Part shown: in pieces, positions 10,426 through 56,096 of the stretch | How the letters are laid out: the number at the start of each line of letters is the position of its first letter | Position numbering within the stretch: the first letter of the stretch is position 1 | Origin: Betaproteobacteria bacterium UBA5216 | GTDB lineage: Bacteria > Pseudomonadota > Gammaproteobacteria > Burkholderiales > SG8-41 | Assembly (NCBI GenBank): GCA_002412495.1 | Contig: DHVE01000129.1 | Coordinates: forward strand, 45,050-109,049 | Direction: 5' to 3' | Length of the DNA stretch: 64,000 nt | Position numbers and translations under genes: made by a program | The notes under the pieces: generated by a model | The model's input: the letters and a program-made list of their open reading frames with translations, nothing else | Databases searched by the model: none | What the model was told of the DNA's origin: nothing

Positions 10426-10439
10426 TTGATCTGGATCAA
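10426..10439. promoter_or_regulatory. FNR box TTGATCTGGATCAA (perfect)
   Basis: Perfect palindromic consensus in the divergent region between 10391(-) and 10508(+). A -41.5 placement predicts a TSS near 10474 and a 34-nt leader for the radical SAM gene. Confidence 0.7.
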
Positions 10440-11476: not shown

Positions 11477-11513
11477 CATCGGCCTCCTCGCTTCGTATCA
11501 CTCGACCACGGCC

Positions 11514-27916: not shown

Positions 27917-27959
27917 TCTCCTCCAGCGAGGGATGCTATCGGCGTTGACGCTGCCATCA

Positions 27960-27973
27960 CTGATATGGATCAA
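27960..27973. promoter_or_regulatory. FNR-like box CTGATATGGATCAA
   Basis: One mismatch to consensus. It could serve the plus-strand efflux operon (predicted TSS near 28008). Confidence 0.45.
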
Positions 27974-27993: not shown

Positions 27994-28007
27994 TTGATTC
28001 AGGTCAA
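27994..28007. promoter_or_regulatory. FNR-like box TTGATTCAGGTCAA
   Basis: One mismatch to consensus. It predicts a TSS near 27959 and a 43-nt leader for ftsH (minus). Confidence 0.5.
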
Positions 28008-37446: not shown

Positions 37447-39042
37447 ATGAATCGAAGCGAAGAACAACGTTACGCAGGCCTGGGCCCGTTTGAACTCAAG
37501 AACAAACTCGTTGAGCTCGCCAAGCACCGCGGCGAACGACTGATGCTCAACGCCGGACGCGGCAATCCTAACTGGGTTGCGCTTGAACCGCGCGCAGCCT
37601 TTTTCCGTTTGGGCGAATTCGCCGTGTTGGAATCCGCGCATGTCGCGCTTGCACCAGGCTTTGGCGGCCTGCCGAAAAAGCGCGGCATCGCACAACGCCT
37701 GCGGGATTTTCTTGCGCAACGCCCGGATGCACCGGGCAATGAACTGCTGTTTCGCGGCATCGACTACGCCCACGCCACACACGGTATCGATCCGGATCTT
37801 CTCGCCGGCGAATGGGTGGATGGCGTCCTCGGCGATCACTATCCGCTGCCGGTGCGCATGCTCACCCACGCCGAGCAACTGGTGCGCGCGCATATCGCCG
37901 TGGAGTTGTCCGATGGCGACGCGGCCGGCGGGCGCTTTGATCTGTTTGCGGTCGAAGGCGCCAGCGCCGGCATTACTTACGTTTTCCAATCCCTCGTCCA
38001 GTCGCGGCTACTCGCGCCGGGCGATTGCATCGCGCTGGGCACACCCATCTTCACGCCCTATCTCGAGGTGCCGCGCCTTGCCGAATACCGCTTTGAACAG
38101 ATAGAAATCATGCAGGACGAGAGCGCAGGCTGGCGTTATCCGGCATCCGAACTCGACAAGCTGCGCGATCCGCGCGTGAAAGCGTTTCTCGTGGTGAATC
38201 CCTCGAACCCGACGGCGGTGGCCATCGATACTGCAACCGCCGCGCATATAGCCAAAATCATGTGCGAGCGCCCCGAACTCATCCTGATCACCGACGACGT
38301 CTATGCGCCGTTCATCAAGGGCTTTCGCTCCCTGGCATCGGTAGCGCCACGAAACACCATTGTGCTCTATTCGTTCTCGAAATTCTGGGGCGCGACCGGA
38401 CTGCGTCTCGGCGTTATCGGCGTGCGGGAGTCGAACGCGCTCGATGCGCGCATTGCCGCCTTGCCCGCCGACGCGCAGGCCAGCGCGCGAGCACGCTACG
38501 GCGCGGTTTCGACAGAGCCCGAACGCATGAAACTCATCGACAGAATGGTGGCCGACAGCCGCGCGATCGGACTAAACCACACCGCCGGCCTGTCTACGCC
38601 GCAGCAAGTGCAAATGACCTTGTTCGCGCTGGATGGCTTGCTCGATATTGGCCATGTTCGCAAGCGCACGGCACGCGCCATCGTGCGCGCCCGCTTCGAG
38701 CAACTGTATCGTGGCGCGGGACTGCCGCCGCCCGACGATCCGCTACTGACGCACTATTATGCGACCCTCGATGTGCCCGCGCTGGCGCGCACGCGCTACG
38801 GAGAGGCGTTCGCCCAATGGCTGATTGACAGCTTTGAACCCATCGATTTCGTCGTGCGCCTGGCCGAACAGCGCGGCATCGTACTGATGGATGGTGGCGG
38901 CTTCGACGCTCCACGTATGTCCGTGCGCGTTTCGCTCGCGAATCTGCCGGATGAGGCTTACGAGCTCATAGGCCGCGCCATCGCCGGACTGCTTGCTGAC
39001 TATCATGCCGAATGGCACGGGCCGAAGCTTGTCGCCGGCTGA
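37447..39042 (+). CDS. asdA: Aspartate 4-decarboxylase (bifunctional aspartate aminotransferase / beta-decarboxylase, PLP)
   Basis: GLGPFELKNKLVELA...MLNAGRGNPNWVALEPRAAFFRLGEF...SFSKFWGATGLRLGV matches AsdA, and the 531-aa size fits. The track ORF (from 36895) is an upstream read-through artefact. Confidence 0.8.
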   Translation: MNRSEEQRYAGLGPFELKNKLVELAKHRGERLMLNAGRGNPNWVALEPRAAFFRLGEFAVLESAHVALAPGFGGLPKKRGIAQRLRDFLAQRPDAPGNELLFRGIDYAHATHGIDPDLLAGEWVDGVLGDHYPLPVRMLTHAEQLVRAHIAVELSDGDAAGGRFDLFAVEGASAGITYVFQSLVQSRLLAPGDCIALGTPIFTPYLEVPRLAEYRFEQIEIMQDESAGWRYPASELDKLRDPRVKAFLVVNPSNPTAVAIDTATAAHIAKIMCERPELILITDDVYAPFIKGFRSLASVAPRNTIVLYSFSKFWGATGLRLGVIGVRESNALDARIAALPADAQASARARYGAVSTEPERMKLIDRMVADSRAIGLNHTAGLSTPQQVQMTLFALDGLLDIGHVRKRTARAIVRARFEQLYRGAGLPPPDDPLLTHYYATLDVPALARTRYGEAFAQWLIDSFEPIDFVVRLAEQRGIVLMDGGGFDAPRMSVRVSLANLPDEAYELIGRAIAGLLADYHAEWHGPKLVAG

Positions 39043-39929: not shown

Positions 39930-40844
39930 TCATCCAACGTCACGCCAATACTCATCCACCCGGGCCTGAATCTCCGCGATCAGTTTGTCATTGCGCACCG
40001 GCTGGAACAGATGCGCAAAGCGCCCCTGCTTCACCAGATAATCCTCCACTGGCAGGCGCGGATGCGGCACACGGGTGTGCGAGACCTTGCCGTCGCGGTA
40101 TTCCTTCAACGGCCAGATGCCGGTCTTCACCGCAAGACGGCCGATTTCCACGGTGTCCATCGGATCATAGTCCCACCCGGTCGGACACGGCGCGAGCGAC
40201 AGGATGAGACGCGGTCCTTTGACACTGACGGCGTGCTGAATCTTGCGCGCGAGATCGAGCGGCTCGGCGCCGATTACCGTTGCCACGTAGGCAGGCCGGT
40301 GCGCGGCCCAAATGGCGAAGAGGTCTTTTTTCTCGCCGCCGAACCCGGCTACACCCGCGTGCGTGGCGGTGCGCGCACCATGCGGCGTCGCAGCCGAGGT
40401 CTGCTGCCCGGTGTTGCCGTACCCTTCGTTGTCGTAGCAGAGGTAAATAAAATCGAGGCCGCGCTCGATGGCCGCCGAGGTCGCCGACAAGCCCATGCCG
40501 TAGGCGGAACCATCGCCGGTAAGTACCACTGCCGTGAGGTTTTCTTCCGGCGGCAGGCGTTTCTTCTCCAGAAGAATATCCAGTGCATCACGCACGCCCT
40601 GTGCTCCAGCGGGCGCGGACGCCATCGAGGTATACAGCCACGAGCCGCGGAATGGCGTATACGGGTAATTCGCCAGCAGCGTCATGCAGCCCGCCGCATT
40701 AACGACCACGGTTTTGTGTCCAAGCAGATCGTAAACTTCATGTAACGCCTGCAAGCCGCCGCAACCCGCGCACATCGCCGTGCCCGCGCCGAGCAAATGC
40801 ACGGATGGCAGATCTTTCATGCTCTTGATGACGAATTCGCTCAT
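39930..40844 (-). CDS. 2-oxoacid:ferredoxin oxidoreductase beta subunit (TPP-binding)
   Basis: GTAMCAGCGG...VVLTGDGSAYGMGLSATSAAIERGLDFIYLCYDNEGYGNTGQQ (TPP/Mg motif GDG...N). Confidence 0.9.
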   Translation of the reverse strand: MSEFVIKSMKDLPSVHLLGAGTAMCAGCGGLQALHEVYDLLGHKTVVVNAAGCMTLLANYPYTPFRGSWLYTSMASAPAGAQGVRDALDILLEKKRLPPEENLTAVVLTGDGSAYGMGLSATSAAIERGLDFIYLCYDNEGYGNTGQQTSAATPHGARTATHAGVAGFGGEKKDLFAIWAAHRPAYVATVIGAEPLDLARKIQHAVSVKGPRLILSLAPCPTGWDYDPMDTVEIGRLAVKTGIWPLKEYRDGKVSHTRVPHPRLPVEDYLVKQGRFAHLFQPVRNDKLIAEIQARVDEYWRDVG

Positions 40845-42085
40845 GGACGCGCGCCCGCCTCGCCGCGTTCCGCCGCGGCAATCGCTTGCAGCTTGCGTAC
40901 TTCGCGCAATTCGCCGCCGGAGTACAAAAGACGCGTCGCGGGAACCGCGCCGGACGCCGCCGCGTTGCGTGACTCAGCTGCCATCGCGAAAAACTCCTCG
41001 ACACGAATGTCGCGCCCGCCAAGCCCCCCCACGTAGCTGCACAACATCGGCATAGCGGGCCGCCCCTGCAGCGCGGCGGCCAATTCGGCGTACAACACCC
41101 CGCCGAATCCCATCGACAGATTCTGATCGATCACCGCCACCGCGCGTTTACCGCGCAACGCCTCGCGCACGGCATCCGCCGGGTACGGGCGCAACAGGCG
41201 CGGGCGAACCAGACCAACACGCTCGCCGCGCGCGCGCAGGCGATCCACCGCATCCCCCGCCTTTGCCGCAAACGAGCCGATCATGAAAAACACCACCTCC
41301 GCATCGTCGCAACGATAGGTATCGACCGCCGAGTAACGACGTCCGAATTCCGCGGCAAACGCCTGCGCGGCCTCTTCGTACGCCACCAGTGCCTGCATGA
41401 CCGCCAGATGCAGTTCATAGCGAAAATACGAGTACGATGCACCGCCCAGAACCGCAACCGCCTGACTCACCGGCTTGCTTGCGCGAAACGCCACCTCACC
41501 GGGCGCGAACGCGGGTAGAAAGCGCCGCACGGAATCCATGGAAGGAAGTTCCACAGGCTCGCGCGTAAATGACAGATAAAACCCGTCCTGATTGACCAGC
41601 ACGGGCACGCGCACCCCGGGATGCTCGGCCACGCGATAGGCAATCAGCACGCTGTCGAGCAGCTCCTGTGCATTTGCGCAATGAATCTGCACAAAACCAC
41701 AGTCACGTGCCGCAAGCACATCAGTATGATCCGGCTCCAGCGTAATCGGTGTCGCCACCGCGCGCGACACATTGACCAGCACAAAAGGCGCGCGCCAGCC
41801 GGGTGTCGCGAACATCATTTCCATCGCATACAGCAACCCTTGGCTGGAAGTCGCGGTAAACACGCGCGCGCCGGTAGCCGCCGCGGCCGCCGCGGCGGTG
41901 ATCATCGAATGCTCGGATTCGAGCGTGGTAAGCCGCCCCTGCATGGCACCGCTCGCATACCAACCCGCGAGGGTTTCGATGATCTCGGTCTGCGGCGTGA
42001 TCGGAAATGCCGGCACGTAATCCACCTCGGCAAGCCGCGCGCCCCACGCCGCCGCGCCATTGCCCGTCAATAGCGCGCGGGTCAT
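40841..42085 (-). CDS. 2-oxoacid:ferredoxin oxidoreductase alpha subunit
   Basis: LLTGNGAAAWGARLAEVDYVPAFPITPQTEIIE...ESEHSMITAAAAAAATGARVFTATSSQGL. ATGA overlaps occur at both ends. Confidence 0.9.
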   Translation of the reverse strand: MTRALLTGNGAAAWGARLAEVDYVPAFPITPQTEIIETLAGWYASGAMQGRLTTLESEHSMITAAAAAAATGARVFTATSSQGLLYAMEMMFATPGWRAPFVLVNVSRAVATPITLEPDHTDVLAARDCGFVQIHCANAQELLDSVLIAYRVAEHPGVRVPVLVNQDGFYLSFTREPVELPSMDSVRRFLPAFAPGEVAFRASKPVSQAVAVLGGASYSYFRYELHLAVMQALVAYEEAAQAFAAEFGRRYSAVDTYRCDDAEVVFFMIGSFAAKAGDAVDRLRARGERVGLVRPRLLRPYPADAVREALRGKRAVAVIDQNLSMGFGGVLYAELAAALQGRPAMPMLCSYVGGLGGRDIRVEEFFAMAAESRNAAASGAVPATRLLYSGGELREVRKLQAIAAAERGEAGARP

Positions 42086-43011
42086 TGCGCGATTTTCTCG
42101 CAAGCCGCCGCTTTGCCTTCCGCCACGGCACGGATGGCATGCGGCGGACACACCGCCACGCATACCAGGCAACCCTTGCAATGATCGTAGTCGATGTGCG
42201 GCGTACGATCGGCATCGACGCGTATCGCGCTGTCCGGGCACAGCGTGCCGCAAATCCACGAGCAGCGATTGCAGTGTCCCGGGTCGATCACGGGCCGGAA
42301 GCTGCGCCACGTCCCGGTCAACGACTGCTCGCTGCTGGCGGTGGCATGAATATCCGGCGCGGCGCGGCGCACGCTGTCCTGCGGCACGTCGATCCAGTCC
42401 GGCGCGGCGGTCACACCGTTGCGTTCGGCCACGCGCTCCCGCACGCAGCCGGCGTGAGCGCTCATCGCGTCATAGGCCGCCAGCGTCCAGCGCAGATCCT
42501 GATCGAGCATAAGCCGCCCGCGCGCGTCCAGCTCAAGACGCACCGCCTGTGCCAGTGTCTCGCGCCGGATCACCCCTACCAGACGCGCTGCCGCCCCCGC
42601 ACACACCGCGCTTTGCAGCGGCGGGGTTCCACCCGGAGGCGATGCCGCTATGGCAGGCACCGCCAGGACAACGCCCGGAAACCTCGCGCGCGCCTGCCAA
42701 CCCTGGGCATCACGCGTGTTGATCAGTATCACCGTATCCGCCGTGACGCCCTGCATGACACCCGCCGCCGGCAGCATCATCAACGATTCGTCGGCCACCA
42801 CCACCAAATCCGGGTTGTCAATGACGCCTCGCTCCTGGATGGGCGTTCGTGATGCGCGCACGTAGGAAAATAGCGGCGCGCCACGGCGTTCCGCGCCGTA
42901 ACGGGGCGCATCCTGCACTTCAAAACCTTCGCCGAAAAATGCGCTGCCCAGAATATTGCCGGCGGTTTTCATGCCCTGACCGCCCCGGCCATGAAAGCGT
43001 ATGCGAAACAT
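42082..43011 (-). CDS. 2-oxoacid:ferredoxin oxidoreductase gamma subunit fused to delta (2x[4Fe-4S] ferredoxin) subunit
   Basis: The N-terminus IRFHGRGGQGMKTAGNILG is the gamma subunit. The C-terminus CNRCSWICGTLCP...CKGCLVCVAVCP holds two CX2CX2CX3CP motifs. Confidence 0.85.
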   Translation of the reverse strand: MFRIRFHGRGGQGMKTAGNILGSAFFGEGFEVQDAPRYGAERRGAPLFSYVRASRTPIQERGVIDNPDLVVVADESLMMLPAAGVMQGVTADTVILINTRDAQGWQARARFPGVVLAVPAIAASPPGGTPPLQSAVCAGAAARLVGVIRRETLAQAVRLELDARGRLMLDQDLRWTLAAYDAMSAHAGCVRERVAERNGVTAAPDWIDVPQDSVRRAAPDIHATASSEQSLTGTWRSFRPVIDPGHCNRCSWICGTLCPDSAIRVDADRTPHIDYDHCKGCLVCVAVCPPHAIRAVAEGKAAACEKIAQ

Positions 43012-43033
43012 CGCGTTCACGTCCGCATCGCGT

Positions 43034-44158
43034 TCAGAACACCCCAAACCGGCGATGCGCCATTGCCTGCCGCACGCGCTTCGCCGCAAGCCCGGTCGCC
43101 GCTTCGCGTGGCGTTATCCCGCCACGCCGCGCCTCTTCGAGCACCTCGCCGGTATTGGCGCGAATTTTTTCGCTGATCACCGCGAACGCCGCCTCCTGCG
43201 TGGCGCCGCGATACTCCATGGCGGCGCAAATCACGCCGCCCGCGTTGGCGATGAAATCCGGCACCACCACCACGCCCCGCCGATGCAGCGCCCGCTCCGC
43301 GGCATCGGTGCAAGGAATGTTCGCGCCCTGCAGCACCAGTCGGGTATTCAGTCTGCCTTCGTTACTTTCATCAATGACATCCGGGCGCGCCGCCGGTATC
43401 CATATTTCGCATTCAATATCGATGATGGCATCGATGCCGCTCGTTACGCCGCGCGGATAATCCAACACGCTTTTGCCTTGATCCTTGAGGCGGGCCAGTT
43501 CCGCGATATCGATGCCCTTTGGATCAGCTAGCGTGCCGTGCGTGTCGGACGCCCCCACGAGCACGGCGCCCTGCTCCACCAGAAATCGCGCTGCATGTTT
43601 GCCCACCGCGCCATACCCCTGTATCGCCACGCGCGCGCCGGCGAGCTTGAAGCCGCAATGGTTCGCCGCTGACTCTGCTGCGTGCCGCAGCCCCCAACCG
43701 GTGGCGCCGATTTCATCCAGCGGTATGCCGCCCAGTTCCGCTGGCAGACCGACCGCACGCCCGATCTCGTCATGCACCCACGCCATGCAAGTTTCGTCGG
43801 TGCCCATATCAGGACCAAAGATGTAGTCCTGTTCATTGCGCAAGGCGTGGGCAAAGGCGCGGATCAGTGTTTCCTTTTGCGCGCGCGGCATGCGCGGGTC
43901 GGCCTGCAACACGGACTTGCCGCCGCCGTGCGCGAGTCCCGCCGCCGCATTTTTGAGCGTCATCGCGCGCGCCAGCCGAAAGCATTCCGCCGTAGTGACG
44001 TCCGGCGCCATGCGCAATCCGCCTATCGATGGCCCGCGCGCCACATTGTCCACCACCAGCGTCCCTTTAAGACCCAGCGAAGGTTCGTATACATGAATAA
44101 TCTTTGCCGGTCCCAGATCATCGGCATGCGTGAATGCGTCGTTCATCCCATACTCCAT
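43034..44158 (-). CDS. Glu/Leu/Phe/Val-family amino-acid dehydrogenase (short, leucine-DH-like size)
   Basis: GPSIGGLRMAP...TLKNAAAGLAHGGGKSV (catalytic Lys) and the NAD fold VAIQGYGAVGKH. The alternative start ATG 44146 has the better RBS. Confidence 0.8.
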   Translation of the reverse strand: MEYGMNDAFTHADDLGPAKIIHVYEPSLGLKGTLVVDNVARGPSIGGLRMAPDVTTAECFRLARAMTLKNAAAGLAHGGGKSVLQADPRMPRAQKETLIRAFAHALRNEQDYIFGPDMGTDETCMAWVHDEIGRAVGLPAELGGIPLDEIGATGWGLRHAAESAANHCGFKLAGARVAIQGYGAVGKHAARFLVEQGAVLVGASDTHGTLADPKGIDIAELARLKDQGKSVLDYPRGVTSGIDAIIDIECEIWIPAARPDVIDESNEGRLNTRLVLQGANIPCTDAAERALHRRGVVVVPDFIANAGGVICAAMEYRGATQEAAFAVISEKIRANTGEVLEEARRGGITPREAATGLAAKRVRQAMAHRRFGVF

Positions 44159-44927
<769 letters not shown>

Positions 44928-44956
<29 letters not shown>

Positions 44957-47360
44957 GCCGCCGCGCCTTCCCGCCGCCGGCAAGACTCTGGTGTATCAGG
45001 GTCAGCTCATGCAAGCGTTTCGCCACGCGGCCATTGATGGTTGACTCCGCGCCGCCCTTGGCATGCGGCTCTCCCGCCGGGACGCCCGTCAACACTTCTA
45101 TCGCCTGATCGATGTTGCTGACGGGTATCACATGAAAACGCCCCGCCGCCGCCGCGTCCAGCACGTCCTGCCGCAGCATCAGATCCTCGACATTGGCCGC
45201 GGGAATGAGAACGCCTTGCGTGCCGGTCAGGCCGCGCCCGTTACAGATGTCGAAGAATCCCTCGATCTTCTGGTTGACGGCGCCTATCGCCTGCACTTGC
45301 CCCAACTGGTTGATGGACCCCGTCACCGCGTAAGACTGCAAAATCGGCACATCGGCGAGCGACGACAGCAATGCGCACAATTCCGCCACCGACGCGCTGT
45401 CGCCATCCACTTCGCTGTAGGTCTGCTCGAACACCAGGCTGGCCGATATGGAGTGCGGCTTGTTGCCAGAATAGCGCGCCGCCAGAAACGATGACAGGAT
45501 CAGCACGCCTTTGGAGTGTATCGACCCGCCCAGTTCCACCTCGCGCTGCACGTCTATCAACACGCCACTGCCAAGGCGCGTGGTGGCGGTAATTTTCGCC
45601 GGCTCCGCAAAGCTGAATCCGCCCAGGTCGAACACAAAAAGACCGTTGACCTGCCCGACCTTCGCACCGGACGTATCGATCATCACGGTGCCGCGCAGTA
45701 TCGATTCGTGCATGCGATTGCGCACCCGATCCGCCCGCTGCAACTGCGCGTCCACAGCATGCTGCACCTCGCCGGCGGACACCTGCCGCGCACCCAGCCC
45801 GCGCGCGCGGTGATCGGCCTCCGCGAGCAGATCCGACATCGCCTGAATGTTGCTCGACAGCTTGCGCGAATCGCCCGTCATGCGCGAACTGTGCTCCACC
45901 AGCCTGGCAACCGCCGTACGGTCGAGCGGCAGCAGCTTCTCGCGACGTTGCAGCGTCGCCAGCACGTGTGCAAAACGCTGTACATTTTCGCCGTCGCGTT
46001 CGATTTCATCCTCAAAATCGACGCTCACCTTGAACAACCGACTGAAGTCGGGATCGTAGGCATGCAATGCGTAATACACGGCGCGCTCGCCAAATAACAC
46101 CACCTTGACATCCAGCGGGATGGTTTCCGGTTCCAGCGATACCGTGCTCGCGAGGCTGTACATTTCCGCCAGCGACTCGATGCGAATGCAGCGCGTCGAT
46201 AGCGCGCGCTTTAGCCCCTCCCATGCGCCGGGCTGCGTCAGCACCTTGTGCGCGTCCAGCAGGAGACAGCCGCCCGACGCACGATGCAACGCTCCCGGTT
46301 TGATCAGCGTAAAGTCGGTGATCAAGGTGCCGAACTGCGCACGGTGGTCGATGCGGCCGATCAGATTCGAGTAGGTCGGATGATCCTCGAATACCACCGG
46401 CGAACCTTGCTGCCCGTTACTATCCACTACCAAGTTGGCCTGATAGCGATGGAACGACGGCGGCCCGGCCAGCATCGCCGGCAGGCTGGCGGGCGCTTCG
46501 CCGGCGTGACGAAATTCATCGGCATTGTCGACGATGTCTTCCTGCACCGCATTGAGATAGTCCACCACGCGCGGCAATGATTGATAACGCGCGCGCAATT
46601 CCGCCACCGGGTGCCCGACCGCGATCAGGGTCATTTCGCGATTGAGCTGCTGAATTTTTTCCATGCGCTCCTTACGCCACTGCATCGAGGCGCGTATGAG
46701 CTTTTCCAGTTTCTGCTGAAGCATCGCGATGGCCGCCTCGATGCGCTGGCGTTCCTCGACCGGCAACTTCTCATAATCCTCGGCCGAGATCACTTCACCG
46801 TCCTTCAACGGCGCCAGCGAAAACCCGGTGGGCGTGCGCAACAGCGTCACGGTGTGCGTGGCGGCTTCCGCCGCGAGTTCGCCGAACGTTTTTTCATGGC
46901 GGGCACTAAATTCAGCATCGATCTGCTCGCCGCGCGAGCGGTATTCGTCGCTCTCGAAAATCGCCGGAATGGCGATGCGCAGATCCTCCACCAGCCGCGC
47001 CATGTCCGCCGCCAGTTCGCTGCCGCGCCCCGGCGGCAACTCGATGGCGTAGGGCTTGTGCGGCTGCTGGAAATTGTTCACATACACCCAGTCGCTGGGC
47101 TTGGCCTCGTCCGCCGCCCGTGCCCGCAGATACTGCGAAGTCATCGCGTGCTTGCCCGAACCGGGCGGCCCCATCACGAACAGGTTGAACCCCTCGCGGC
47201 GGATGCCGGCGCCGAACTCCAGCGACGTCTGCGCCCTGTGCTGCCCCGCGAAGCCGGCCTGATCATCCAGTTCCGCCGTGGTCTCAAAGGCAAACGCGGA
47301 AGGTGGGCAATGCTTGCGCAGGCTTTCCAGCGGCAGGGGTTTCATCGGTTCGAACGGCAT
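44928..47360 (-). CDS. Lon-like ATP-dependent protease (AAA_32 / LonC-type, no N-terminal Lon substrate domain)
   Basis: Walker A FVMGPPGSGKH. The C-terminal Lon S16 domain has GDSASVAELCALLSSL (Ser) and ...AVNQKIEGFF (Lys). ATG 47360 (MPFEPMKPLP...) was chosen; the track ORF starts at 47429. Confidence 0.8.
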
Positions 47361-47464
47361 CGTGAGTCTCCGTGGCAACGACTGAATGGCACGGGTACCG
47401 GTCATTCGATACCACCGCGAATTCAGCACACGGCCCCATTATGGAAACGCGGTCGGCCGGGAAG

Positions 47465-47478
47465 TTGATCTGGATCAA
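47465..47478. promoter_or_regulatory. FNR box TTGATCTGGATCAA (perfect)
   Basis: Lies in the 155-nt gap upstream of the Lon-like gene. It predicts a TSS near 47430 and a 70-nt leader. Confidence 0.7.
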
Positions 47479-47515: not shown

Positions 47516-48106
47516 TCAATGGTCGGTGAATCTTCGCCGCACTTTCTGCGGCGGCAGCACCATGATGCGCCGGTACAGGTGGGTAAATTCCGTGCGATGA
47601 TTCGAGCCGAACAGTGGGTCGTCGTTGGCCGCGAATGCCTCTGCGATATGCACCCAATCGGGCTCGGTCAATACCTCGTTCGCGCGACGCAACACATCAT
47701 CTTCCACAATGAAGTGCGCGAGCATGTCGGCCGCGTGGTTATCCACGCTTTCCTGAAAATGCCGCAGCCCGTCCGGCGCGCCGGCCTGGTACAGCACCAG
47801 CTTTCGATTCAACTCACCCAGCACCCCGGCGCTGCGCGCGTGTTCGGCCTGCAAGCGTTCGAGTACGGGATCCAGCTCCGCCGTGCGCATGCGCAAGCAC
47901 TTGAACAAATACTCTTCTTCCTTGGGGTGATGGCAGCGCTCCGGGAAATCATTCATGTAGTACAACGCGGCGGAGAGCAGCCCGAAGTCGGCAGCAGCCT
48001 GTCCTGCCGCAACGCTCGTCAAAAGCTCACGCAACGTTTGCAAAACCGTCCCCAGCGAGCGATGCTCCATTTTGATGGTCGCTATCGCTACGTCGCTAGC
48101 ACTCAT
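47516..48106 (-). CDS. Hemerythrin-like (HHE cation-binding) domain protein
   Basis: IKMEHRSL...ERCHHPKEEEYLF...LQAEH... H/E metal-ligand spacing typical of NorA/DnrN-type hemerythrin-like proteins. Confidence 0.7.
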   Translation of the reverse strand: MSASDVAIATIKMEHRSLGTVLQTLRELLTSVAAGQAAADFGLLSAALYYMNDFPERCHHPKEEEYLFKCLRMRTAELDPVLERLQAEHARSAGVLGELNRKLVLYQAGAPDGLRHFQESVDNHAADMLAHFIVEDDVLRRANEVLTEPDWVHIAEAFAANDDPLFGSNHRTEFTHLYRRIMVLPPQKVRRRFTDH

Positions 48107-48184: not shown

Positions 48185-48198
48185 TTGATCTAAATCAA
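48185..48198. promoter_or_regulatory. FNR box TTGATCTAAATCAA (perfect half-sites)
   Basis: Predicts a TSS near 48150 and a 44-nt leader to the hemerythrin ATG 48106. Confidence 0.7.
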
Positions 48199-49317: not shown

Positions 49318-52194
49318 ATGAATCTCGAAGGCCCCGAATTATTTTTTCTCGAACAACCGGTCAGCACCGATGTGCTGCTGGAGAAATACGCCAAGGGTGA
49401 CGAACGCACGGTGGAAGATGTGCGCCGCCGCGTGGCGCGCGCGCTGGCCGCCGTGGAGAAAGATGCCGCGCGCTGGGAAGTTGAATTCTTCACAGCGCTA
49501 AGCAATGGCTTCATTCCCGGCGGGCGCGTCAATTCCGCCGCGGGTACTGACCTGCAGGCAACGCTGATCAATTGTTTTGTGCAACCGGTGGGCGATTCGG
49601 TGTCGCAAACAGTGGATGGCAAGCCGGGCATATACGTTGCACTGATGGAAGCCGCGGAAACCATGCGCCGCGGCGGCGGCGTGGGATATGACTTTTCGTC
49701 GATCCGCCCGAAGGGCGCCTATGTGCGCGGCACGCATTCTTCGGCCAGCGGCCCGGTGTCATACATGCGGGTGTTCGACCGCAGTTGCGAAACGGTCGAA
49801 TCCGCCGGCTCGCGGCGCGGTGCGCAGATGGGCATATTGCGTTGCGATCATCCGGACATCGAGGACTTCATCCACGCCAAGGACGAAGGCGACCTGCGCA
49901 ACTTTAACGTGAGCGTCGCGGTCACCGACGCCTTCATGCACGCGATGGAAACCGGCGGCGATTGGGAACTCGTGCATCGCGCCGCCCCCGGCGAGGCGTT
50001 CGTCAAAAATGCCCGCCAGCGCGCCGACGGCCTGTGGGTCTACCGCACGCTGCCCGCAAGTGAGTTGTGGCGGCAGATCATGCAAAGCACCTACGATCAC
50101 GCCGAGCCGGGGGTGGTGTTTATCGACCGCATCGCGGCGGATAACAATCTGTCGTATTGCGAACAGATTGAGTCGACCAATCCTTGCGCGGAACAGCCAC
50201 TCCCCCCTTACGGCTGCTGTTGCCTTGGCAGCATCAATCTCACCTGTTTTGTCAGCGATCCGTTCACGCCGCACGCGCGCTTTGATTTTGACGCCTTTGC
50301 GCGCGTGGTGCGCCCGTCGATACGCATGCTCGACAACGTGCTGGATGTGACGGTGTGGCCGCTGCCCCAGCAGCAGGCGGAGGCGCGCGCCAAGCGCCGC
50401 GTGGGCCTGGGATTCACCGGGCTGGGCGACACGCTGGTCATGCTCAACCTCAAGTACGACACCGATGACGCGCGTGCCATGGGTGCGCGCATCGCCGAGC
50501 GCATGCGTGATGAAGCCTACGCTGCTTCAGTGGATATCGCCAAGGACAAAGGCGCGTTTCCGCTGTTCGATGCGCGCGAGTACCTCGCGGCGCCGCGTTT
50601 TGCTTCGCGTCTGCCGGCACGTTTGCAATCGGAGATAACCCGCCACGGCCTGCGCAACAGCCACCTGTTGTCGATCGCGCCCACCGGCACCATTTCGCTT
50701 GCGTTTGCCGACAACGCCTCGAACGGCATCGAGCCGGCGTTTGCCTGGGTGTATCAGCGCAAGAAGCGCATGCCCGACGACACGCACAAAACCTACGATG
50801 TCGAAGATCACGCGTGGCGGCTCTTTCGCCATCAGGGCGGCGACGCGGAAAAACTGCCGCCGGCGTTTGTAACGGCGCTGTCGATTTCCGCGCTTGACCA
50901 CATGCGCATGGTAGCGGCGGTGGCGCCGTTCGTTGATTCGGCGATCAGCAAAACGGTCAACGTGCCGGAGGATTATCCGTACGCGCAATTCGCGGACCTG
51001 TATTTCGAGGCCTGGAAATCGGGGTTAAAGGGCATCACCACCTACCGCCCCAACGCCGTGCTGGGCAGCGTGCTGTCGGTCGCTGTCGCCAATAAGGCCG
51101 CGCAACCCAACGACCTGGATACCACCGACGCCGATCGCCGCATTCAGCTCGACGCGGCGCCCCAACCCGCTCTGGCGAGCCTGCGCTGGCCGGGACGGCC
51201 CACGCTGCCCACCGGCAATCCGTCATGGACCTACATGGTCGAATCGCCGTACGGGCGCTACGCGATTTTTGTCGGGCACGTTGAAAACGCAGGCAGCCCA
51301 CCGACGCCGTTTGAAGTGTGGATCAACGGCAACGAGCAGCCGCGCGGCATCGGCGCGGTAGCCAAAACCTTGTCGATGGACATGCGCGCGCAAGACGCCA
51401 AGTGGCTGCGCGTCAAGCTCGATATGCTGGCGCGCGCGGGCGGCGAACCGTTCGAGTGCGCCATGCCGCCCTCGGGTCTGCCCGTACGCGTGCCGGGCAT
51501 GGTGGCGGCCTTCGCGCGCATCGTGCGTTATCGCATCGATCAACTGGGCGCACTGGCACAATCGGGCGATGCCGATGCAAATACCGAACCTGGCGCCAGG
51601 TCACCGATACTCGACGCGCTGTTCGCCAAAAAAGAACCCAAGACCGGCCCCGACGGCACAATGTCGTGGACGGCCGATGTCTACAACCCGAGTTCGGAAG
51701 ACGACTTTGTGCTGATGCTGAAGGAACTCGTGCTGTCCAATGGCCAGCGGCGCCCCTACTCGGTGTGGATGGCTGGCGTGTATCCGCGCGCGCTCGATGG
51801 CCTGTGCAAGCTGTTGTCGCTGGATATGCGCGTGATTGATCCGGCGTGGATCGGCATGAAACTGCGCAAGTTACTCACCTACGACGAGCCGCTGGGGGAT
51901 TTCATGGCGCGCGTGCCGGGCGAAGAACGCCAGGAAAATTATCCCGGCACGGTGGCCTATGTCGCGCGGCTCATCATTCACCGCTACGCCATGCTCGGCG
52001 TGCTCGACGAGCGCGGATATCCGCTCGACGACATGGGCGTGCTCGAAATCCCCGACGACGACCGCAAACCCGCTGCCTACGCCTACAAAGCTTTGCACGG
52101 TAAACCGTGCAAGGAATGCGGCAACTCCGCGATCATTAAAAAAGACGGCTGCGAGTTTTGCACGGCGTGCGGGGCTATTGGGGCATGTGGCTAG
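49318..52194 (+). CDS. nrdJ: Adenosylcobalamin-dependent ribonucleotide reductase, class II (NrdJ)
   Basis: 958 aa. GGGVGYDFSSIRP, active-site STNPCAEQPL...LGSINL, and a C-terminal Cys cluster CKECG...CEFCTACG. Start trimmed to ATG 49318 from the track ORF at 49159. Confidence 0.9.
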   Translation: MNLEGPELFFLEQPVSTDVLLEKYAKGDERTVEDVRRRVARALAAVEKDAARWEVEFFTALSNGFIPGGRVNSAAGTDLQATLINCFVQPVGDSVSQTVDGKPGIYVALMEAAETMRRGGGVGYDFSSIRPKGAYVRGTHSSASGPVSYMRVFDRSCETVESAGSRRGAQMGILRCDHPDIEDFIHAKDEGDLRNFNVSVAVTDAFMHAMETGGDWELVHRAAPGEAFVKNARQRADGLWVYRTLPASELWRQIMQSTYDHAEPGVVFIDRIAADNNLSYCEQIESTNPCAEQPLPPYGCCCLGSINLTCFVSDPFTPHARFDFDAFARVVRPSIRMLDNVLDVTVWPLPQQQAEARAKRRVGLGFTGLGDTLVMLNLKYDTDDARAMGARIAERMRDEAYAASVDIAKDKGAFPLFDAREYLAAPRFASRLPARLQSEITRHGLRNSHLLSIAPTGTISLAFADNASNGIEPAFAWVYQRKKRMPDDTHKTYDVEDHAWRLFRHQGGDAEKLPPAFVTALSISALDHMRMVAAVAPFVDSAISKTVNVPEDYPYAQFADLYFEAWKSGLKGITTYRPNAVLGSVLSVAVANKAAQPNDLDTTDADRRIQLDAAPQPALASLRWPGRPTLPTGNPSWTYMVESPYGRYAIFVGHVENAGSPPTPFEVWINGNEQPRGIGAVAKTLSMDMRAQDAKWLRVKLDMLARAGGEPFECAMPPSGLPVRVPGMVAAFARIVRYRIDQLGALAQSGDADANTEPGARSPILDALFAKKEPKTGPDGTMSWTADVYNPSSEDDFVLMLKELVLSNGQRRPYSVWMAGVYPRALDGLCKLLSLDMRVIDPAWIGMKLRKLLTYDEPLGDFMARVPGEERQENYPGTVAYVARLIIHRYAMLGVLDERGYPLDDMGVLEIPDDDRKPAAYAYKALHGKPCKECGNSAIIKKDGCEFCTACGAIGACG

Positions 52195-52642
52195 AGAGGG
52201 AAAATATCCTTTTAAAACACTTGGTTATATTTATCCGTGAAGATAGGTATTTGAGGTGACAGGCAGTGCGCGAAATGATCGGATCTTGGGCTTATATGTC
52301 GACACTTGATTTCCTCGGCAAAGGCTCTCGATGATTGACAACCATCGGCCAACTCCAAGACTGCGAAGGTGGTTTCCGACATTGGCTGCTTATCGGCCAG
52401 AGCCATCTTTGGCTCCGTGCAGCATCAACGGCAGGTTTAGGTCTGGCACCAGCCATTGCCCAAAAGAATGGGGGCGAATGGCGGCTGTCTGTTGCGACGA
52501 ATGCGTGCTCCTGCCCCGTTGCGGACCGTGGCGCAGCTGTCAAAGCGGACGCTCAACGCCTCAGTTCTGCCGCCCCTTATAGGCGGGCTAAGGACCGTCC
52601 AATCGGGTCGGCTGCAACTGATGTTAATCAGTGTGCGGATAA

Positions 52643-53506
52643 TCACTTCGTGGCCGCACCGACAAGGCATTCGCCCGGCACCTCGAACCCACCATGCGAT
52701 TCGAAACTGCGCATTGCGCCTTCCACTTCGTTCCACGCGGACTTGCGTTCTTGTGGGAGCAAGTGAGCCATCATGGCATTGAATCCACCGAAGGCCTCTT
52801 CGGCGACCCGCACGTACTCTGCAGCACTAGCCGCTCTATGTGGCACCGGCACAGCGCGAACCTCGGGGCCGGCAAATCCCGCTTGACGGAAGACGTTTTC
52901 GAGTAGCCCGGGACCGCCAAGGCTGAACGGTCCGGGTTGCCCTGGAACGGGAGGCGAAAGTTGCGCTCGCCGGCGGATGATGGAAGCGGGCAGAGCCCCC
53001 CAACTGTTTCGATCGGGCGACGAAAAGACAGCGACGGCGACCCGACCTCCAGGTCTGAGAACACGGCGCCACTCGCGTAGCGCTGCCACAGGATCAGGCA
53101 TATACATAAGACCAAGCCTACACAGCACCACATCAAAGGAAGCGTCAGGAAGATCAACTCTCTCGCCGTCCATGACGCGGGTCTCGATTTGTTTATATCC
53201 CCGTTCACGGGCGACCTGGAGCGCAAGCTCAATGATCCCTTCTGAGATGTCGGTCGCGAGTACATAACCGCTAGGGCCAACTCGTTCGGCGGCACTGACC
53301 GCCGGTTCACCTGCCCCGGCGGCAACGTCCAGGATGCGCTGACCTGGCTGAGTCCGGGCTAGGTCGAGCATCTGGCGAGTGGCTACGCCATACCAACGCT
53401 CCAGAGTGGGAGTCCAGCGCCGCCACGCTGCGCCGTCCTTGTTCCATTGTTCCCGCTGCGCGTTCTTGTACTTCGCTGCGTCGAATGAGGGTTGCTGTTC
53501 GGCCAT
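52643..53506 (-). CDS. Class I SAM-dependent methyltransferase
   Basis: ILDVAAGAGEPA (motif I) ...FDVVLCRLGLMYMPD...LRPGGRVAVAVF. Confidence 0.8.
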   Translation of the reverse strand: MAEQQPSFDAAKYKNAQREQWNKDGAAWRRWTPTLERWYGVATRQMLDLARTQPGQRILDVAAGAGEPAVSAAERVGPSGYVLATDISEGIIELALQVARERGYKQIETRVMDGERVDLPDASFDVVLCRLGLMYMPDPVAALREWRRVLRPGGRVAVAVFSSPDRNSWGALPASIIRRRAQLSPPVPGQPGPFSLGGPGLLENVFRQAGFAGPEVRAVPVPHRAASAAEYVRVAEEAFGGFNAMMAHLLPQERKSAWNEVEGAMRSFESHGGFEVPGECLVGAATK

Positions 53507-53700
53507 AGGAAGTACTCCTCTCGGTTAGACATTGATGCTGCGGTTACACGCTTACGAAACGTACGGATTGGAACCACTTTCGCGTTTCAAGTTCACACCG
53601 CACAAGCCGAGTGTAAGTTACTTGGCATGTCTGCCAACTTAAGCATATTTGTCCTATTGAGGCCGGCATGAGCTATTCCCTGCTCACTCTGTAAGCCGAA

Positions 53701-53923
53701 ATTGAAAATACAGGGGTTTTTGCCAATGGCCGGTTACTAATTTACCCGGAGATTCACTCTCCCAGCCAATAGCGGTGGTTTCGAGTTACGTTTCGATTGG
53801 CACACAATTCTTGTTCAAACAACTTGTTGTGCATCATCTGGTAATCGCATAGCATCGCCTTCGGCAAGACTGCTGGCGAGTGCATAGCTCGCCTAACCTA
53901 TCTCCGTTCCTTTGGCGTAGCCC
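53701..53923 (+). repeat. Copy 1 of a repeated intergenic leader element (upstream of the DUF1330 gene)
   Basis: Core 53761-53923 aligns at roughly 70% (by eye) with 54529-54680. It includes GTTTCGA-GTTAC-GTTTCGA direct repeats and the hairpin GGCGAG-tgcatag-CTCGCC (53875-53893). Confidence 0.6.
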
Positions 53924-53972
53924 GGTGCGCTTTTTATGCGATGGGCAATCACAACCAGCTATAAGGGATATC

Positions 53973-54359
53973 ATGAAAATTAGTTACAAAGCATTATTGA
54001 CTCTGCTCGTGGGCATTTCACTTGGTGGGGCGGTCATTCAGGGGCTTAATGCCCAGGGCAAACCCACAGTACCGGTCTATATTGTCAACGAAGTAGAGGT
54101 AATCGATCAGGCTGGGTTTAAGACCTACGCAGACCGCCAAGAGGTATTGATCAAGAAAAACGGTGGACGATACATCATCCGGGGCGGAAAAGTCACGGCA
54201 CTTGATGGTACGCCCCCCAAGCGGTTCACTGTGTATGTTTTTGACAGCATGGAAAAGATGCAGAGTTGGCAAAATGACCCTGCGCAAAAGGAACTGATGG
54301 CGATGCGTAGCAAGGCTGCCAAGTTCCACTCGTTCGCAGTCGAAGGTATTCCAAACTAG
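53973..54359 (+). CDS. DUF1330-domain protein with N-terminal signal peptide
   Basis: MKISYKALLTLLVGISLGGAVIQGLNA, then YIVNEVEVIDQAGFKTYA...GGRYIIRGGKV...VYVFDSMEKMQSWQNDP. ATG 53973 was chosen. Confidence 0.7.
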   Translation: MKISYKALLTLLVGISLGGAVIQGLNAQGKPTVPVYIVNEVEVIDQAGFKTYADRQEVLIKKNGGRYIIRGGKVTALDGTPPKRFTVYVFDSMEKMQSWQNDPAQKELMAMRSKAAKFHSFAVEGIPN

Positions 54360-54434
54360 CACGCATCAATTATCTGATCTCAGGGCGCCATCAGTTGGTG
54401 CCCTCGTTTTTCTTATGCTGGCTCAGTGGTGTTT

Positions 54435-54680
54435 TGAAAATTGCCCGAGATGGTGGTGCCGTGCGACCAATCAACTGCGAAAATGCGCCAGAAATCGGCC
54501 AGCGGCCTTCACTGGGCGTATTTCGCTACCCTGCCGATAGCGGCGGTTTCCGGTTACGTTTCGATTTGCACAAAATCCGCGCTCAATATATCCGTTGTAG
54601 TGCATCAGTTAATCGCATGGGATCAAGCTTGGAAAGACTGAAGGTGCTTGCCTAGCACTCCGTTACTTTGGCGTATCGCC
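54435..54680 (+). repeat. Copy 2 of the repeated intergenic leader element (upstream of the cytochrome c gene)
   Basis: Aligns with copy 1. The hairpin GGTGCT-tgcct-AGCACT (54643-54659) carries compensatory changes relative to copy 1. Confidence 0.6.
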
Positions 54681-54710
54681 AATACTCCATAAACCGAGGG
54701 GGGATTATTC

Positions 54711-55706
54711 GTGAAAAGAATCAAAAACACTTTGCTTCATGGACTGGGTATATTGGCCATCACCATCAGCAGCAGCTACGCCCAAAGCGGCGGCTCACTC
54801 CCCGCAGGGGCTGCCGACGGACTTCCCAATTGGGCCTTTATATGGGATCCGAACGTCAAGGTGCCACCGCCAGACGACAAGCCCAATTCGCTCCCCGGCA
54901 GCAGCGCGAGTTACAGTTGGAGGCAGGCGCGCGATTTGTTCGTGGCGCCGGACTGGCATCCAAGCGATCATGGACCAATGCCGGATATTGTCGCCAACGG
55001 ACGCAAGCCGGATGTACGCGCCTGCGGCTCTTGCCATCGCGCTGAGGGTACTGGCGGGCCCGAAAATGCAAATCTCGCTGGACTGCCCATCAGCTATTTC
55101 GTTCAGCAAATCGCCGATTTCAAAAGTGGCGCGAGAAAGATGTCGGGCCCTGACAGGCCAGCCAAAACATTGATGATGGGATCAGTCAAAGCCATGACCG
55201 ATGCCGAGGCTCTCGTCGCTGCGCAATATTTTTCGGCACTGCAGCCCAGGCGCAATGTCAAGGTCGTCGAAGCCGAGATGATTCCAAAGACCGGCGAAGC
55301 GCGGCTGTTTTTCACCAAGAGTCCGGGCGGTGGTACCGAGCCTCTCGGTCGCCGCATTGTCGAGTTTCCGGATAACGAAGATCAATTCGAACTTCGCGAC
55401 ACGCATTCGACTTTTACGGCTTATGTGCCGGTCGGAAGCGTGGCCAAGGGAGAAGCACTGGCCAAGACCGGCGGCGCCGGAACCACCCTAGCCTGTAGCA
55501 TCTGTCACGGACCGGCATTGAAGGGTGTCGGCCCGATTCCCCGGATCGCTGGACGCTCGCCGACCTACATCGTGCGCCAGCTCTATGAGTTCAAGACGGG
55601 CGGTCGATCGGCGGGCGCCAGCGCGCTGATGAAGCAAGCTGTCGATAAACTTTCGCCGGAAGACATTATCGCGCTCGCGGCGTATATCGGCTCTCTGGAG
55701 CCGTAG
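54711..55706 (+). CDS. Periplasmic di-heme c-type cytochrome
   Basis: Signal peptide and two CXXCH motifs (CGSCH, CSICH). GTG 54711 is preceded by GAGGGGGG. Confidence 0.8.
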   Translation: MKRIKNTLLHGLGILAITISSSYAQSGGSLPAGAADGLPNWAFIWDPNVKVPPPDDKPNSLPGSSASYSWRQARDLFVAPDWHPSDHGPMPDIVANGRKPDVRACGSCHRAEGTGGPENANLAGLPISYFVQQIADFKSGARKMSGPDRPAKTLMMGSVKAMTDAEALVAAQYFSALQPRRNVKVVEAEMIPKTGEARLFFTKSPGGGTEPLGRRIVEFPDNEDQFELRDTHSTFTAYVPVGSVAKGEALAKTGGAGTTLACSICHGPALKGVGPIPRIAGRSPTYIVRQLYEFKTGGRSAGASALMKQAVDKLSPEDIIALAAYIGSLEP

Positions 55707-55751
55707 ACGTCCCGACGGGCCGCGCCCGGTCGGTTCAAATATAAAGCCGCT

Positions 55752-55815
55752 GTGTGACCAATCAACGGCGGCCTTAGCTCGCGATCGAATTTGCGAGGCA
55801 ACATGTGCACGAATG
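55752..55815 (+). repeat. Partial copy 3 of the repeated element (downstream of the cytochrome c gene)
   Basis: GTGTGACCAATCAACGGCG matches 54461-54479 (GTGCGACCAATCAACTGCG). CGATCGAATTTGCGA resembles the ...TTTCGATTTGCACA segment. Confidence 0.4.
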
Positions 55816-56096
55816 GTGGCTATGGAGAAACTTAAATGGCCAGAGTGGCTCGGTAGAACGGTTTCCTCGTTCTAGACAGCGGCCATTCAATCTTACTTTG
55901 GGCAATAGCTGGTAACTGATGGACACCGGTCGCCCATGTTACGCGGAGCCAACTGCAGAAATGGCCGAGCACCAAACGCCGCCGATGGTTACAGCGGATG
56001 CTTTTTAAGACTCAATTTCGACCAGTCGAATTTCTGGATGGCCATCGGTCACGCATCCCGAACTCCGATACTGACCGTCAGATTCAGCGCACTCCC

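Follow-up and report, generated by a model that had tools for sequence, protein, structure and literature searches.

The stretch analysed here, hereafter the window, comprises 64,000 nucleotides of contig DHVE01000129.1 (forward-strand positions 45,050 to 109,049) from Betaproteobacteria bacterium UBA5216, and the subject of this analysis is a cluster of six genes within it, in which a Lon-like protease and a tandem universal stress protein (USP) stand in front of an amino-acid dehydrogenase and the three genes of a 2-oxoacid:ferredoxin oxidoreductase (OFOR). The list of open reading frames (ORFs) gives these genes as six head-to-tail frames on the minus strand, running from 47360 to 39930, and Pfam backs each family. 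The first gene (44928-47360) encodes the Lon-like protease of 810 aa, which carries the Pfam domains LonC_helical, AAA_32, LonB LID and Lon_C; the second (44159-44935) encodes the tandem USP-like protein of 258 aa, hereafter USP2, as assigned by a family profile, an AlphaFold2 (AF2) model and Foldseek; and the third (43034-44158, with an alternative start at 44146) encodes a dehydrogenase of 370-374 aa that Pfam places in the ELFV family of amino-acid dehydrogenases. The OFOR genes follow as a gamma-delta fusion of 309 aa (42082-43011), with the Pfam POR gamma domain, a 2x[4Fe-4S] delta domain and NCBIfam matches, an alpha subunit of 414 aa (40841-42085; Pfam POR_N and PFOR_II) and a beta subunit of 304 aa (39930-40844; Pfam TPP_enzyme_C).

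The junctions between these genes are tight. The stop codon of the Lon gene (TGA, 44930-44928) is overlapped by 8 nt by the USP2 gene, whose ATG lies at 44935 (ATGGTTGA), and the TGA of USP2 abuts the dehydrogenase ATG at 44158. The database protein P0156 (370 aa) is 100% identical to the dehydrogenase; as it has four residues fewer than the 374-aa ORF, it agrees with translation beginning 12 nt downstream, at the next ATG (44146). A gap of 22 nt separates the dehydrogenase from the OFOR gamma-delta gene, and the gamma-delta/alpha and alpha/beta junctions are both ATGA overlaps. The preliminary description of this DNA, which was made from the letters alone, had reported the six tightly packed minus-strand genes with these junctions, and reading of the sequence together with Pfam bears it out; it had also held that internal terminators would speak against a joint operon, and no terminator-like or promoter-like signal inside the cluster rises above shuffle background. 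A one-mismatch FNR-like site, TTGATCAGTATCAC, is found at 42719-42732 within the gamma-delta coding region; it is probably a chance occurrence, but might act as an internal promoter of the OFOR genes that follow.

As judged from sequence comparison, the protease is a member of the LonC family. Residues 33-760 are homologous to MtaLonC of Meiothermus taiwanensis and TTC1975 of Thermus thermophilus (PDB 4FWD, E = 4.5e-89), the LonC reference structures considered being PDB 4FWD, 7EUY and 8K8V, and the window protein shares with these two proteases the same set of domains, including the helical-hairpin insertion in the AAA-like domain, which is matched by Pfam LonC_helical with E = 1.4e-16. A CX3GLX(G/E) insertion after the catalytic lysine has been defined as a LonC feature (PMC3391209); in the window protein it reads CNGRGLTG (residues 706-713), with C706, G710, L711 and G713 invariant. 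The catalytic dyad Ser655/Lys698, with the serine in a DSA motif, is kept in all 163 homologues as well as in the window protein. Those Lon homologues that carry a name come from Burkholderiales or betaproteobacterial metagenome-assembled genomes, and by these names the source organism looks like a Burkholderiales-type betaproteobacterium.

The AAA module of the window protease has a Walker-B-like segment, LLLDA, and a glutamate after the aspartate is found in 0 of the 163 homologues; the corresponding segment of MtaLonC is GYLILDA (PMC3391209). The Walker A motif is canonical in the window protein (GPPGSGK, followed by H), and GxxGxGK is present in most homologues, whereas MtaLonC has a degenerate GPPSLGK, a difference within the family that does not exclude the window protein from it. 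It has been reported that MtaLonC and TTC1975 show no ATPase activity, that they degrade unfolded substrates independently of ATP, and that they have chaperone activity (PMC3391209, PMC13069640). Because the AAA module is degenerate and the characterised LonC proteases are not ATPases, the window protease most likely needs no ATP, and nucleotide or phosphate sensing by LonC is possible. The preliminary description had recognised a LonC-type AAA protease with a Ser-Lys domain and had assumed ATP-dependent proteolysis; the family and the dyad stand, and the dependence on ATP is not supported, given relatives without ATPase activity and the missing Walker-B glutamate. Unlike the LonC references, the window protease is encoded with a tandem-USP partner and behind an FNR box, and the two LonC papers (PMC3391209, PMC13069640), for a family with solved structures and in-vitro activities, mention no physiological role, partner, regulon, operon context or low-oxygen link, 'universal stress' and 'operon' having 0 occurrences in them. 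A role in anti-phage defence, by analogy with BrxL-like Lon proteins, was also considered and rejected, as PADLOC gave no match for Lon, USP2 or the ELFV dehydrogenase.

USP2 is, by its sequence profile and predicted structure, a tandem universal stress protein with two USP alpha/beta domains per chain. The window protein alone scores 23.6 bits with Pfam Usp, just below the cut-off of 24, and 35 of 42 family members match. The family profile finds TTHA0350 (3AB7) in the PDB with E = 2.6e-25, and the AF2 model, built from an 80-sequence alignment (pLDDT 90.2, pTM 0.87), has the tandem USPs TTHA0350 and Rv2623 as its best Foldseek matches, with E of about 1e-11. The family is large, with about 1,390 50%-identity clusters matching USP2 at E <= 1e-10. 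TTHA0350 (3AB7/3AB8) and Mycobacterium tuberculosis Rv2623 (3CIS) likewise carry two USP domains per chain, and Rv2623 is induced by hypoxia via DosR. USP2 nevertheless differs from them: its own-family hidden Markov model (HMM) gives it 260 bits, against 89-110 bits for TTHA0350-type proteins, and the window protein lacks their ATP loop and has an insertion of its own, FVED-x-NL-x-R-x-A-x-LPF, a family hallmark that is nearly invariant in the family alignments. The ATP loop segment, G-2x-G-9x-G(S/T), is deleted in window USP2 and its close relatives, while many orthologues keep it, for instance in domain 1 of the locus L084 protein (GRAGWSLVRPGRMGST). The absence of an ATP motif, noted in the preliminary description, thus holds for the window protein and not for many of its orthologues. 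TTHA0350 was also tried as a LonC neighbour and rejected, as the Thermus and Meiothermus loci read MFS-USP-CBS, with no Lon gene.

The association of the two genes extends well beyond the window. Across 170 Lon-bearing loci, which are a sample of the matches listed and not a complete count (134 of them non-redundant), USP2 lies directly downstream of Lon in at least 75, mostly at -16 to +50 nt from the Lon stop. In the non-redundant set, USP2 directly follows LonC in 66 of 134 loci from at least eight phyla, according to the record titles: Pseudomonadota, Planctomycetota, Chloroflexota, Acidobacteriota, Deinococcota, Desulfobacterota-type bacteria, Myxococcota and a Prosthecochloris genome. 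The USP2-negative loci have no recurrent alternative partner, since their 65 downstream ORFs clustered only as pairs from close relatives. Judged from this gene order, USP2 is translationally coupled to LonC and is its dedicated partner, which agrees with the earlier suggestion that the USP-like protein works with the protease. Full-text literature searches retrieved no paper joining Lon-like proteases with USPs, and the pair of LonC and tandem USP, conserved as sequence comparison has it, is apparently undescribed. Apparent Lon-USP2 fusions in L042, L068, L078 and L087 were rejected, as they are out-of-frame open frames in GC-rich DNA and the frames of Lon and USP2 differ.

LonC homologues are also carried on plasmids. 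On the plasmid NZ_CP081082.1 of Leisingera caerulea, a cultured roseobacter (L176, 7977-11142), a LonC homologue annotated in RefSeq as 'ATP-binding protein' is overlapped by a downstream gene that is a diverged USP2 member (HMM E = 1e-17; RefSeq 'hypothetical protein'), with CbpA/CbpM-like chaperone genes and a Zn-dependent alcohol dehydrogenase as neighbours. On the plasmid NZ_CP017753.1 of Cupriavidus sp. USMAHM13 (L177), the place after the LonC homologue where USP2 would be expected is taken by an IS30 transposase, and ftsH, Hsp20 and alanine dehydrogenase (ald) genes are found near LonC, so that an amino-acid dehydrogenase is again present in a LonC stress island.

The third gene product matches Pfam ELFV_dehydrog (E = 4.7e-54) and ELFV_dehydrog_N (E = 2.1e-21) and belongs to a strongly conserved 370-aa subfamily that was aligned across 13 loci at 56-84% identity. 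The catalytic residues K65, K77 and D113 are invariant in the 13 orthologues. When aligned with the Thermus glutamate dehydrogenase (GDH) 3AOE, GPSIGG, with Ile, stands against GPAKGG, and GGVICA, with Ala, stands against GGVTVS; Ile41 is invariant and Ala308 nearly invariant in the orthologues. From GDH and leucine dehydrogenase structures, we take the two replaced positions to be the ligands of the glutamate gamma-carboxylate, K89 and S380 in Clostridium symbiosum numbering. All NCBIfam equivalogs remain below cut-off for this protein, and the GDH models far below. The ELFV protein is predicted to be an active enzyme that acts on a neutral, probably hydrophobic, amino acid and not on glutamate. 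A 67%-identical ELFV gene occurs without LonC in Burkholderia stagnalis, a B. cepacia complex species (L179, NZ_CP156686.1, 11461-13113), where it adjoins P-type ATPase, Hsp20- and BON-type genes and has a perfect FNR box about 0.5 kb upstream.

The OFOR is, on profile evidence, a member of the pyruvate/2-ketoisovalerate (Por/Vor) family that passes no substrate-level equivalog. The gamma-delta fusion exceeds the cut-offs of TIGR02175 (114.5, cut-off 81.1) and TIGR02179 (83, cut-off 60.05). For the alpha subunit the best NCBIfam model is PorA_Arch with 368 (cut-off 550), and the oxalate oxidoreductase alpha model gives 237 (cut-off 500); the beta subunit scores 245 with PorB and 233 with Vor beta, both below the cut-off of 405, and contains the GDG...N motif for binding thiamine pyrophosphate together with conserved Cys residues. 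The cassette ELFV-gamma-delta-alpha-beta is found in the window and in two further loci, L170 and L174, with ELFV/gamma-delta junctions of 14-22 nt, and this recurrence upholds the metabolic link from dehydrogenase to OFOR that the preliminary description had drawn. OFOR alpha had no match in the plasmid collection.

In L174 (3199-12667) the cassette is inserted into a 2-oxoacid dehydrogenase cluster, where it separates E1-beta from E2, and on a Leisingera plasmid (L180, 2738-7104) the order is E1-alpha, E1-beta, E2, ELFV. The E1/E2 2-oxoacid dehydrogenase complexes are irreversible, and the catabolic direction of the dehydrogenase-OFOR module is favoured because ELFV associates with them. The L174 cluster also contains an AMP-binding enzyme and a carrier protein. 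The same E1/E2-type cluster, without ELFV and OFOR, lies beside Lon-USP2 in L168 (14771-20054). In L170 the beta gene is followed by two small ORFs (9236-9818) whose Fer2_4 and Fer4_Nqo3 domains make them possible partners in electron transfer; they have no counterpart after the beta gene of the window.

A motif scan places a perfect FNR/Anr-type box, TTGATCTGGATCAA, at 47465-47478, with 111 nt from the box centre to the Lon start codon. A -10-like hexamer, CATAAT, can be read from the sequence on the minus strand at 47438-47443, 21 nt downstream of the box; the box centre lies 28.5 nt before it, that is, at about -40.5/-41.5 if the hexamer is taken to occupy -12 to -7, a position comparable to that in class-II FNR promoters. 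Transcription would then start near 47431, leaving a 5' untranslated region of about 70 nt. The box had been recognised in the preliminary description, and its class-II-like geometry makes the Lon promoter a credible candidate class-II FNR promoter, at which FNR binding would be expected. The arrangement of box, N21 and CATAAT upstream of Lon is also present in L162, with similar spacing in L168 and L170, and FNR-like boxes precede Lon in 19 of 150 loci, compared with about 4 expected.

Comparison with related loci indicates how the six genes came together. In all four of the lineages with the closest Lon among the matches listed (83-84% identity), the OFOR genes are absent: Lon-USP2-ELFV is followed by unrelated genes, and the content beside Lon-USP2 varies (PAS kinase, MarC, ABC transporter, GDPD). 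Among the fetched Lon-bearing loci (L001-L170), OFOR genes near Lon were found in no other locus except L170, which is also the only other fetched locus with both Lon-USP2 and ELFV-OFOR. In L170, whose Lon is 67% identical to that of the window, all six genes are present as two units, Lon-USP2 and ELFV-gamma-delta-alpha-beta, with an opposite-strand FNT gene between them and a perfect FNR box for each, at positions 604 and 4940. This two-unit layout, together with the relatives that have no OFOR, implies that the window block is a fusion of two FNR-controlled units. On gene-order evidence, the six-gene cluster is best read as a lineage-specific local fusion and not as a new pathway architecture, and the earlier view of the six genes as one evolved unit is not supported.

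The 370-aa ELFV is found within 10 kb in 10 of the 66 USP2-positive loci and in none of the 68 USP2-negative ones (Fisher p = 6e-4), in several gene orders: Lon-USP2-ELFV in L001, L162, L165 and L167, ELFV-Lon-USP2 in L108, ELFV-x-Lon-USP2 in L081 (Marinobacter), and with ELFV further off in L034 and L136. LonC is absent from all three ELFV loci that were sampled independently of Lon, and ELFV is missing from L168, a locus with 83% Lon identity to L170. The LonC-USP2/ELFV link is, as far as gene neighbourhoods tell, real but facultative. As to whether the protease and the metabolic genes meet elsewhere, the answer is accordingly divided: the dehydrogenase recurs near LonC-USP2, and the OFOR, among the fetched loci, does so only in L170.

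Taken together, these observations are best accommodated by a reading that we hold to be somewhat probable, in which FNR induces two fused modules, LonC-USP2 for ATP-free protein turnover, and ELFV/OFOR for converting a neutral amino acid into an acyl-CoA. When oxygen falls, FNR would bind the box about 41 nt upstream of the presumed start and switch on the six genes. LonC, with its USP partner as a regulator or adaptor, would turn over proteins that are unfolded or can be spared, without spending ATP; the ELFV enzyme would deaminate a neutral, probably hydrophobic, amino acid to its 2-oxoacid with formation of NADH; and the OFOR would convert the 2-oxoacid into an acyl-CoA and reduced ferredoxin. 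A role in anoxic survival through proteolysis and amino-acid catabolism is plausible; from the sequence we infer co-transcription, FNR dependence, the physical interaction of LonC and USP, the substrate, the direction of flux and the channelling of proteolysis products into the second module. It has been reported that genes for proteolysis and amino-acid metabolism are fitness determinants in the oxygen-limited growth arrest of Pseudomonas aeruginosa, and the idea of proteolysis supplying amino acids in such arrest already exists for that organism (PMC5705914).

The proposed chemistry resembles the amino-acid fermentation of Thermococcales and clostridia, which employs proteases, deamination or transamination, the oxidoreductases POR, VOR, IOR and KGOR, and acyl-CoA synthetase. 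Both these organisms and the window have the sequence amino acid, 2-oxoacid, acyl-CoA by way of a Por/Vor-family OFOR. In the window, however, the genes lie in a betaproteobacterial FNR island, one dehydrogenase replaces the pair of transaminase and GDH, no ADP-forming acyl-CoA synthetase is nearby, and the protease is the intracellular LonC.

Several points weigh against this reading. About half of the LonC loci have no USP2, and most USP2-positive loci have no ELFV, so neither link is obligatory; moreover, a single clade (Lon 83-91% mutual identity) accounts for five of the ten loci with ELFV, which leaves about six independent associations. The canonical P-loop, unlike that of MtaLonC, makes nucleotide binding or regulation of LonC possible. 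FNR binding, the transcription start and co-transcription at this locus are matters that we infer. Among the window proteins scanned there is no Pta/Ack, ADP-forming acyl-CoA synthetase, ferredoxin or reductant sink. Finally, OFORs are reversible, and the direction of flux through the cluster is therefore not fixed by sequence.

A different possibility is that under anoxia the second module runs in reverse as a redox sink, in which acyl-CoA, CO2 and reduced ferredoxin would give a 2-oxoacid that is then reductively aminated with NADH to an amino acid, LonC-USP2 being a separate proteostasis system that shares the regulon. Alanine dehydrogenase has been proposed to dispose of reducing equivalents in hypoxic mycobacteria, and an alanine dehydrogenase gene stands near LonC in the similar stress island of the Cupriavidus plasmid; the ELFV reaction is reversible like that of the OFOR, a non-fermenting organism in anoxia needs electron sinks, and no ATP-yielding step for acyl-CoA was found nearby. 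We regard such a sink as improbable, because ELFV also stands in or after E1/E2 clusters that are oxidative only (L174 and L180), because no source of reduced ferredoxin is evident, and because the association of ELFV with LonC-USP2 across different gene orders would be left unexplained.

It might also be supposed that the genes are adjacent merely through gene loss and compaction in an FNR island, with no functional relation beyond shared induction. FNR boxes and stress genes are indeed dense, with shuffled orders, in the window and related loci, the content beside Lon-USP2 is variable, and L168 is without ELFV. This seems unlikely in view of the placement of USP2 at -16 to +50 nt after Lon in most of the 75 loci, over at least eight phyla, the restriction of ELFV to USP2-positive loci, including distant lineages with differing orders, and the ELFV-OFOR junction that is kept in three contexts. 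Little probability is likewise left for a dedicated 'self-digestion-to-fermentation' operon evolved as one unit, in which an ATP-dependent Lon obligatorily feeds the dehydrogenase and OFOR to conserve energy: the close packing of overlapping genes behind a single FNR box, the enrichment of ELFV near LonC-USP2 and its ties to 2-oxoacid decarboxylation genes, and the importance of proteolysis in P. aeruginosa oxygen-limited arrest (PMC5705914) would suit it, but the OFOR is absent from the closest-Lon lineages and from all fetched Lon loci but L170, where the halves are separate, with their own FNR boxes and an opposite-strand FNT gene between them, the characterised LonC has no ATPase activity and degrades unfolded substrates only (PMC3391209), the Walker-B glutamate is found in 0 of 163 homologues, and the window proteins scanned include no enzyme that would yield ATP from acyl-CoA.

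Of more general interest, and apparently undescribed, are the pair of LonC and tandem USP and, tied to this pair, the non-glutamate ELFV subfamily, the low-oxygen island itself being of a known kind. We tentatively put forward, as a possibility that is still rather doubtful, that LonC and USP2 form a widespread undescribed two-component proteolytic system, in which the USP would gate or target an ATP-independent protease-chaperone according to energy or nucleotide state, and which in several lineages would be coupled to a non-glutamate ELFV enzyme that begins to break down the amino acids set free in oxygen starvation. If true, this would give LonC a defined physiological function. The conserved tandem-USP partner, the FNR/Anr-type low-oxygen setting and the recurrent uncharacterised ELFV neighbour are testable leads for LonC. 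If the links are functional, ATP-free protein turnover would be joined to amino-acid catabolism in energy-starved anoxic cells, which bears on how aerobes, Burkholderia-type opportunists among them, persist in oxygen-poor niches.

The surroundings of the cluster agree with a low-oxygen setting. The window contains 20 FNR-like sites with at most one mismatch, nine of them perfect, compared with 1.23 expected (for example at 10426, 12791, 16375, 17643, 23253, 47465, 48185 and 62397), so that the Lon box is one of many in an FNR-rich island. The island includes four single-domain USPs, a Crp/Fnr-family regulator (11433-12302), a PAS histidine kinase, an FtsH protease (26027-27973), a P-type ATPase, a MacAB/TolC-like efflux set, the aspartate 4-decarboxylase AsdA, a hemerythrin gene, an FNT channel, a class II ribonucleotide reductase and cbb3 oxidase genes. 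The window is, from its sequence alone, an FNR/Anr-type low-oxygen island of the lxa-like kind. It has in common with the lxa locus of Burkholderia cenocepacia, as far as the available passages of its description go (PMC3721108), the make-up of a co-regulated-type island with FNR/Anr-like motifs, multiple USPs, a Crp/Fnr regulator, a class II ribonucleotide reductase, an FtsH-type protease, a cation ATPase and an ABC efflux system; the Anr-regulated USP genes of P. aeruginosa are a further likeness. In that paper ferredoxin oxidoreductase has 0 occurrences, and a Lon-type protease and an ELFV dehydrogenase are absent from the available passages (PMC3721108); relative to these, LonC-USP2, ELFV-OFOR and AsdA would be the additions of the window.

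The gene directly upstream of Lon (47516-48106, minus strand) encodes a hemerythrin-domain protein according to Pfam and has its own FNR box at 48185-48198. There is no terminator-like signal between this gene and the Lon promoter, so read-through from hemerythrin into Lon is possible; the hemerythrin-Lon gene order is also present in L162. At the other end, the aspartate 4-decarboxylase gene asdA (37495-39042, plus strand; NCBIfam NF006755, 647 bits, cut-off 321) converges on the OFOR end of the cluster. AsdA is 82% identical in L170 (11710-13230, minus strand), where it has the same convergent position, and it is not present in the relatives without OFOR. AsdA may be a feeder enzyme for the cluster: a route from aspartate by way of alanine and pyruvate to acetyl-CoA is possible, as suggested by these two related loci only.

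Rfam gave no match at gathering score anywhere in the window. The FtsH-type gene (26027-27973, minus strand) has two FNR-like sites at its 5' end, at 27960-27973 and 27994-28007, and parallels the Zn protease BCAM0309 of the lxa locus, whose gene table, in the part available, lists an ATP-dependent Zn protease (PMC3721108); with FtsH and LonC, the island would encode two low-oxygen proteases, one ATP-dependent and one LonC-type. The region 52000-56000 has a lower GC content, 0.557 compared with about 0.61-0.64, and contains a methyltransferase gene (52643-53506) and a c-type cytochrome gene (54711-55706); lying between the ribonucleotide reductase and the cbb3 accessory genes, the region may have been inserted there later.

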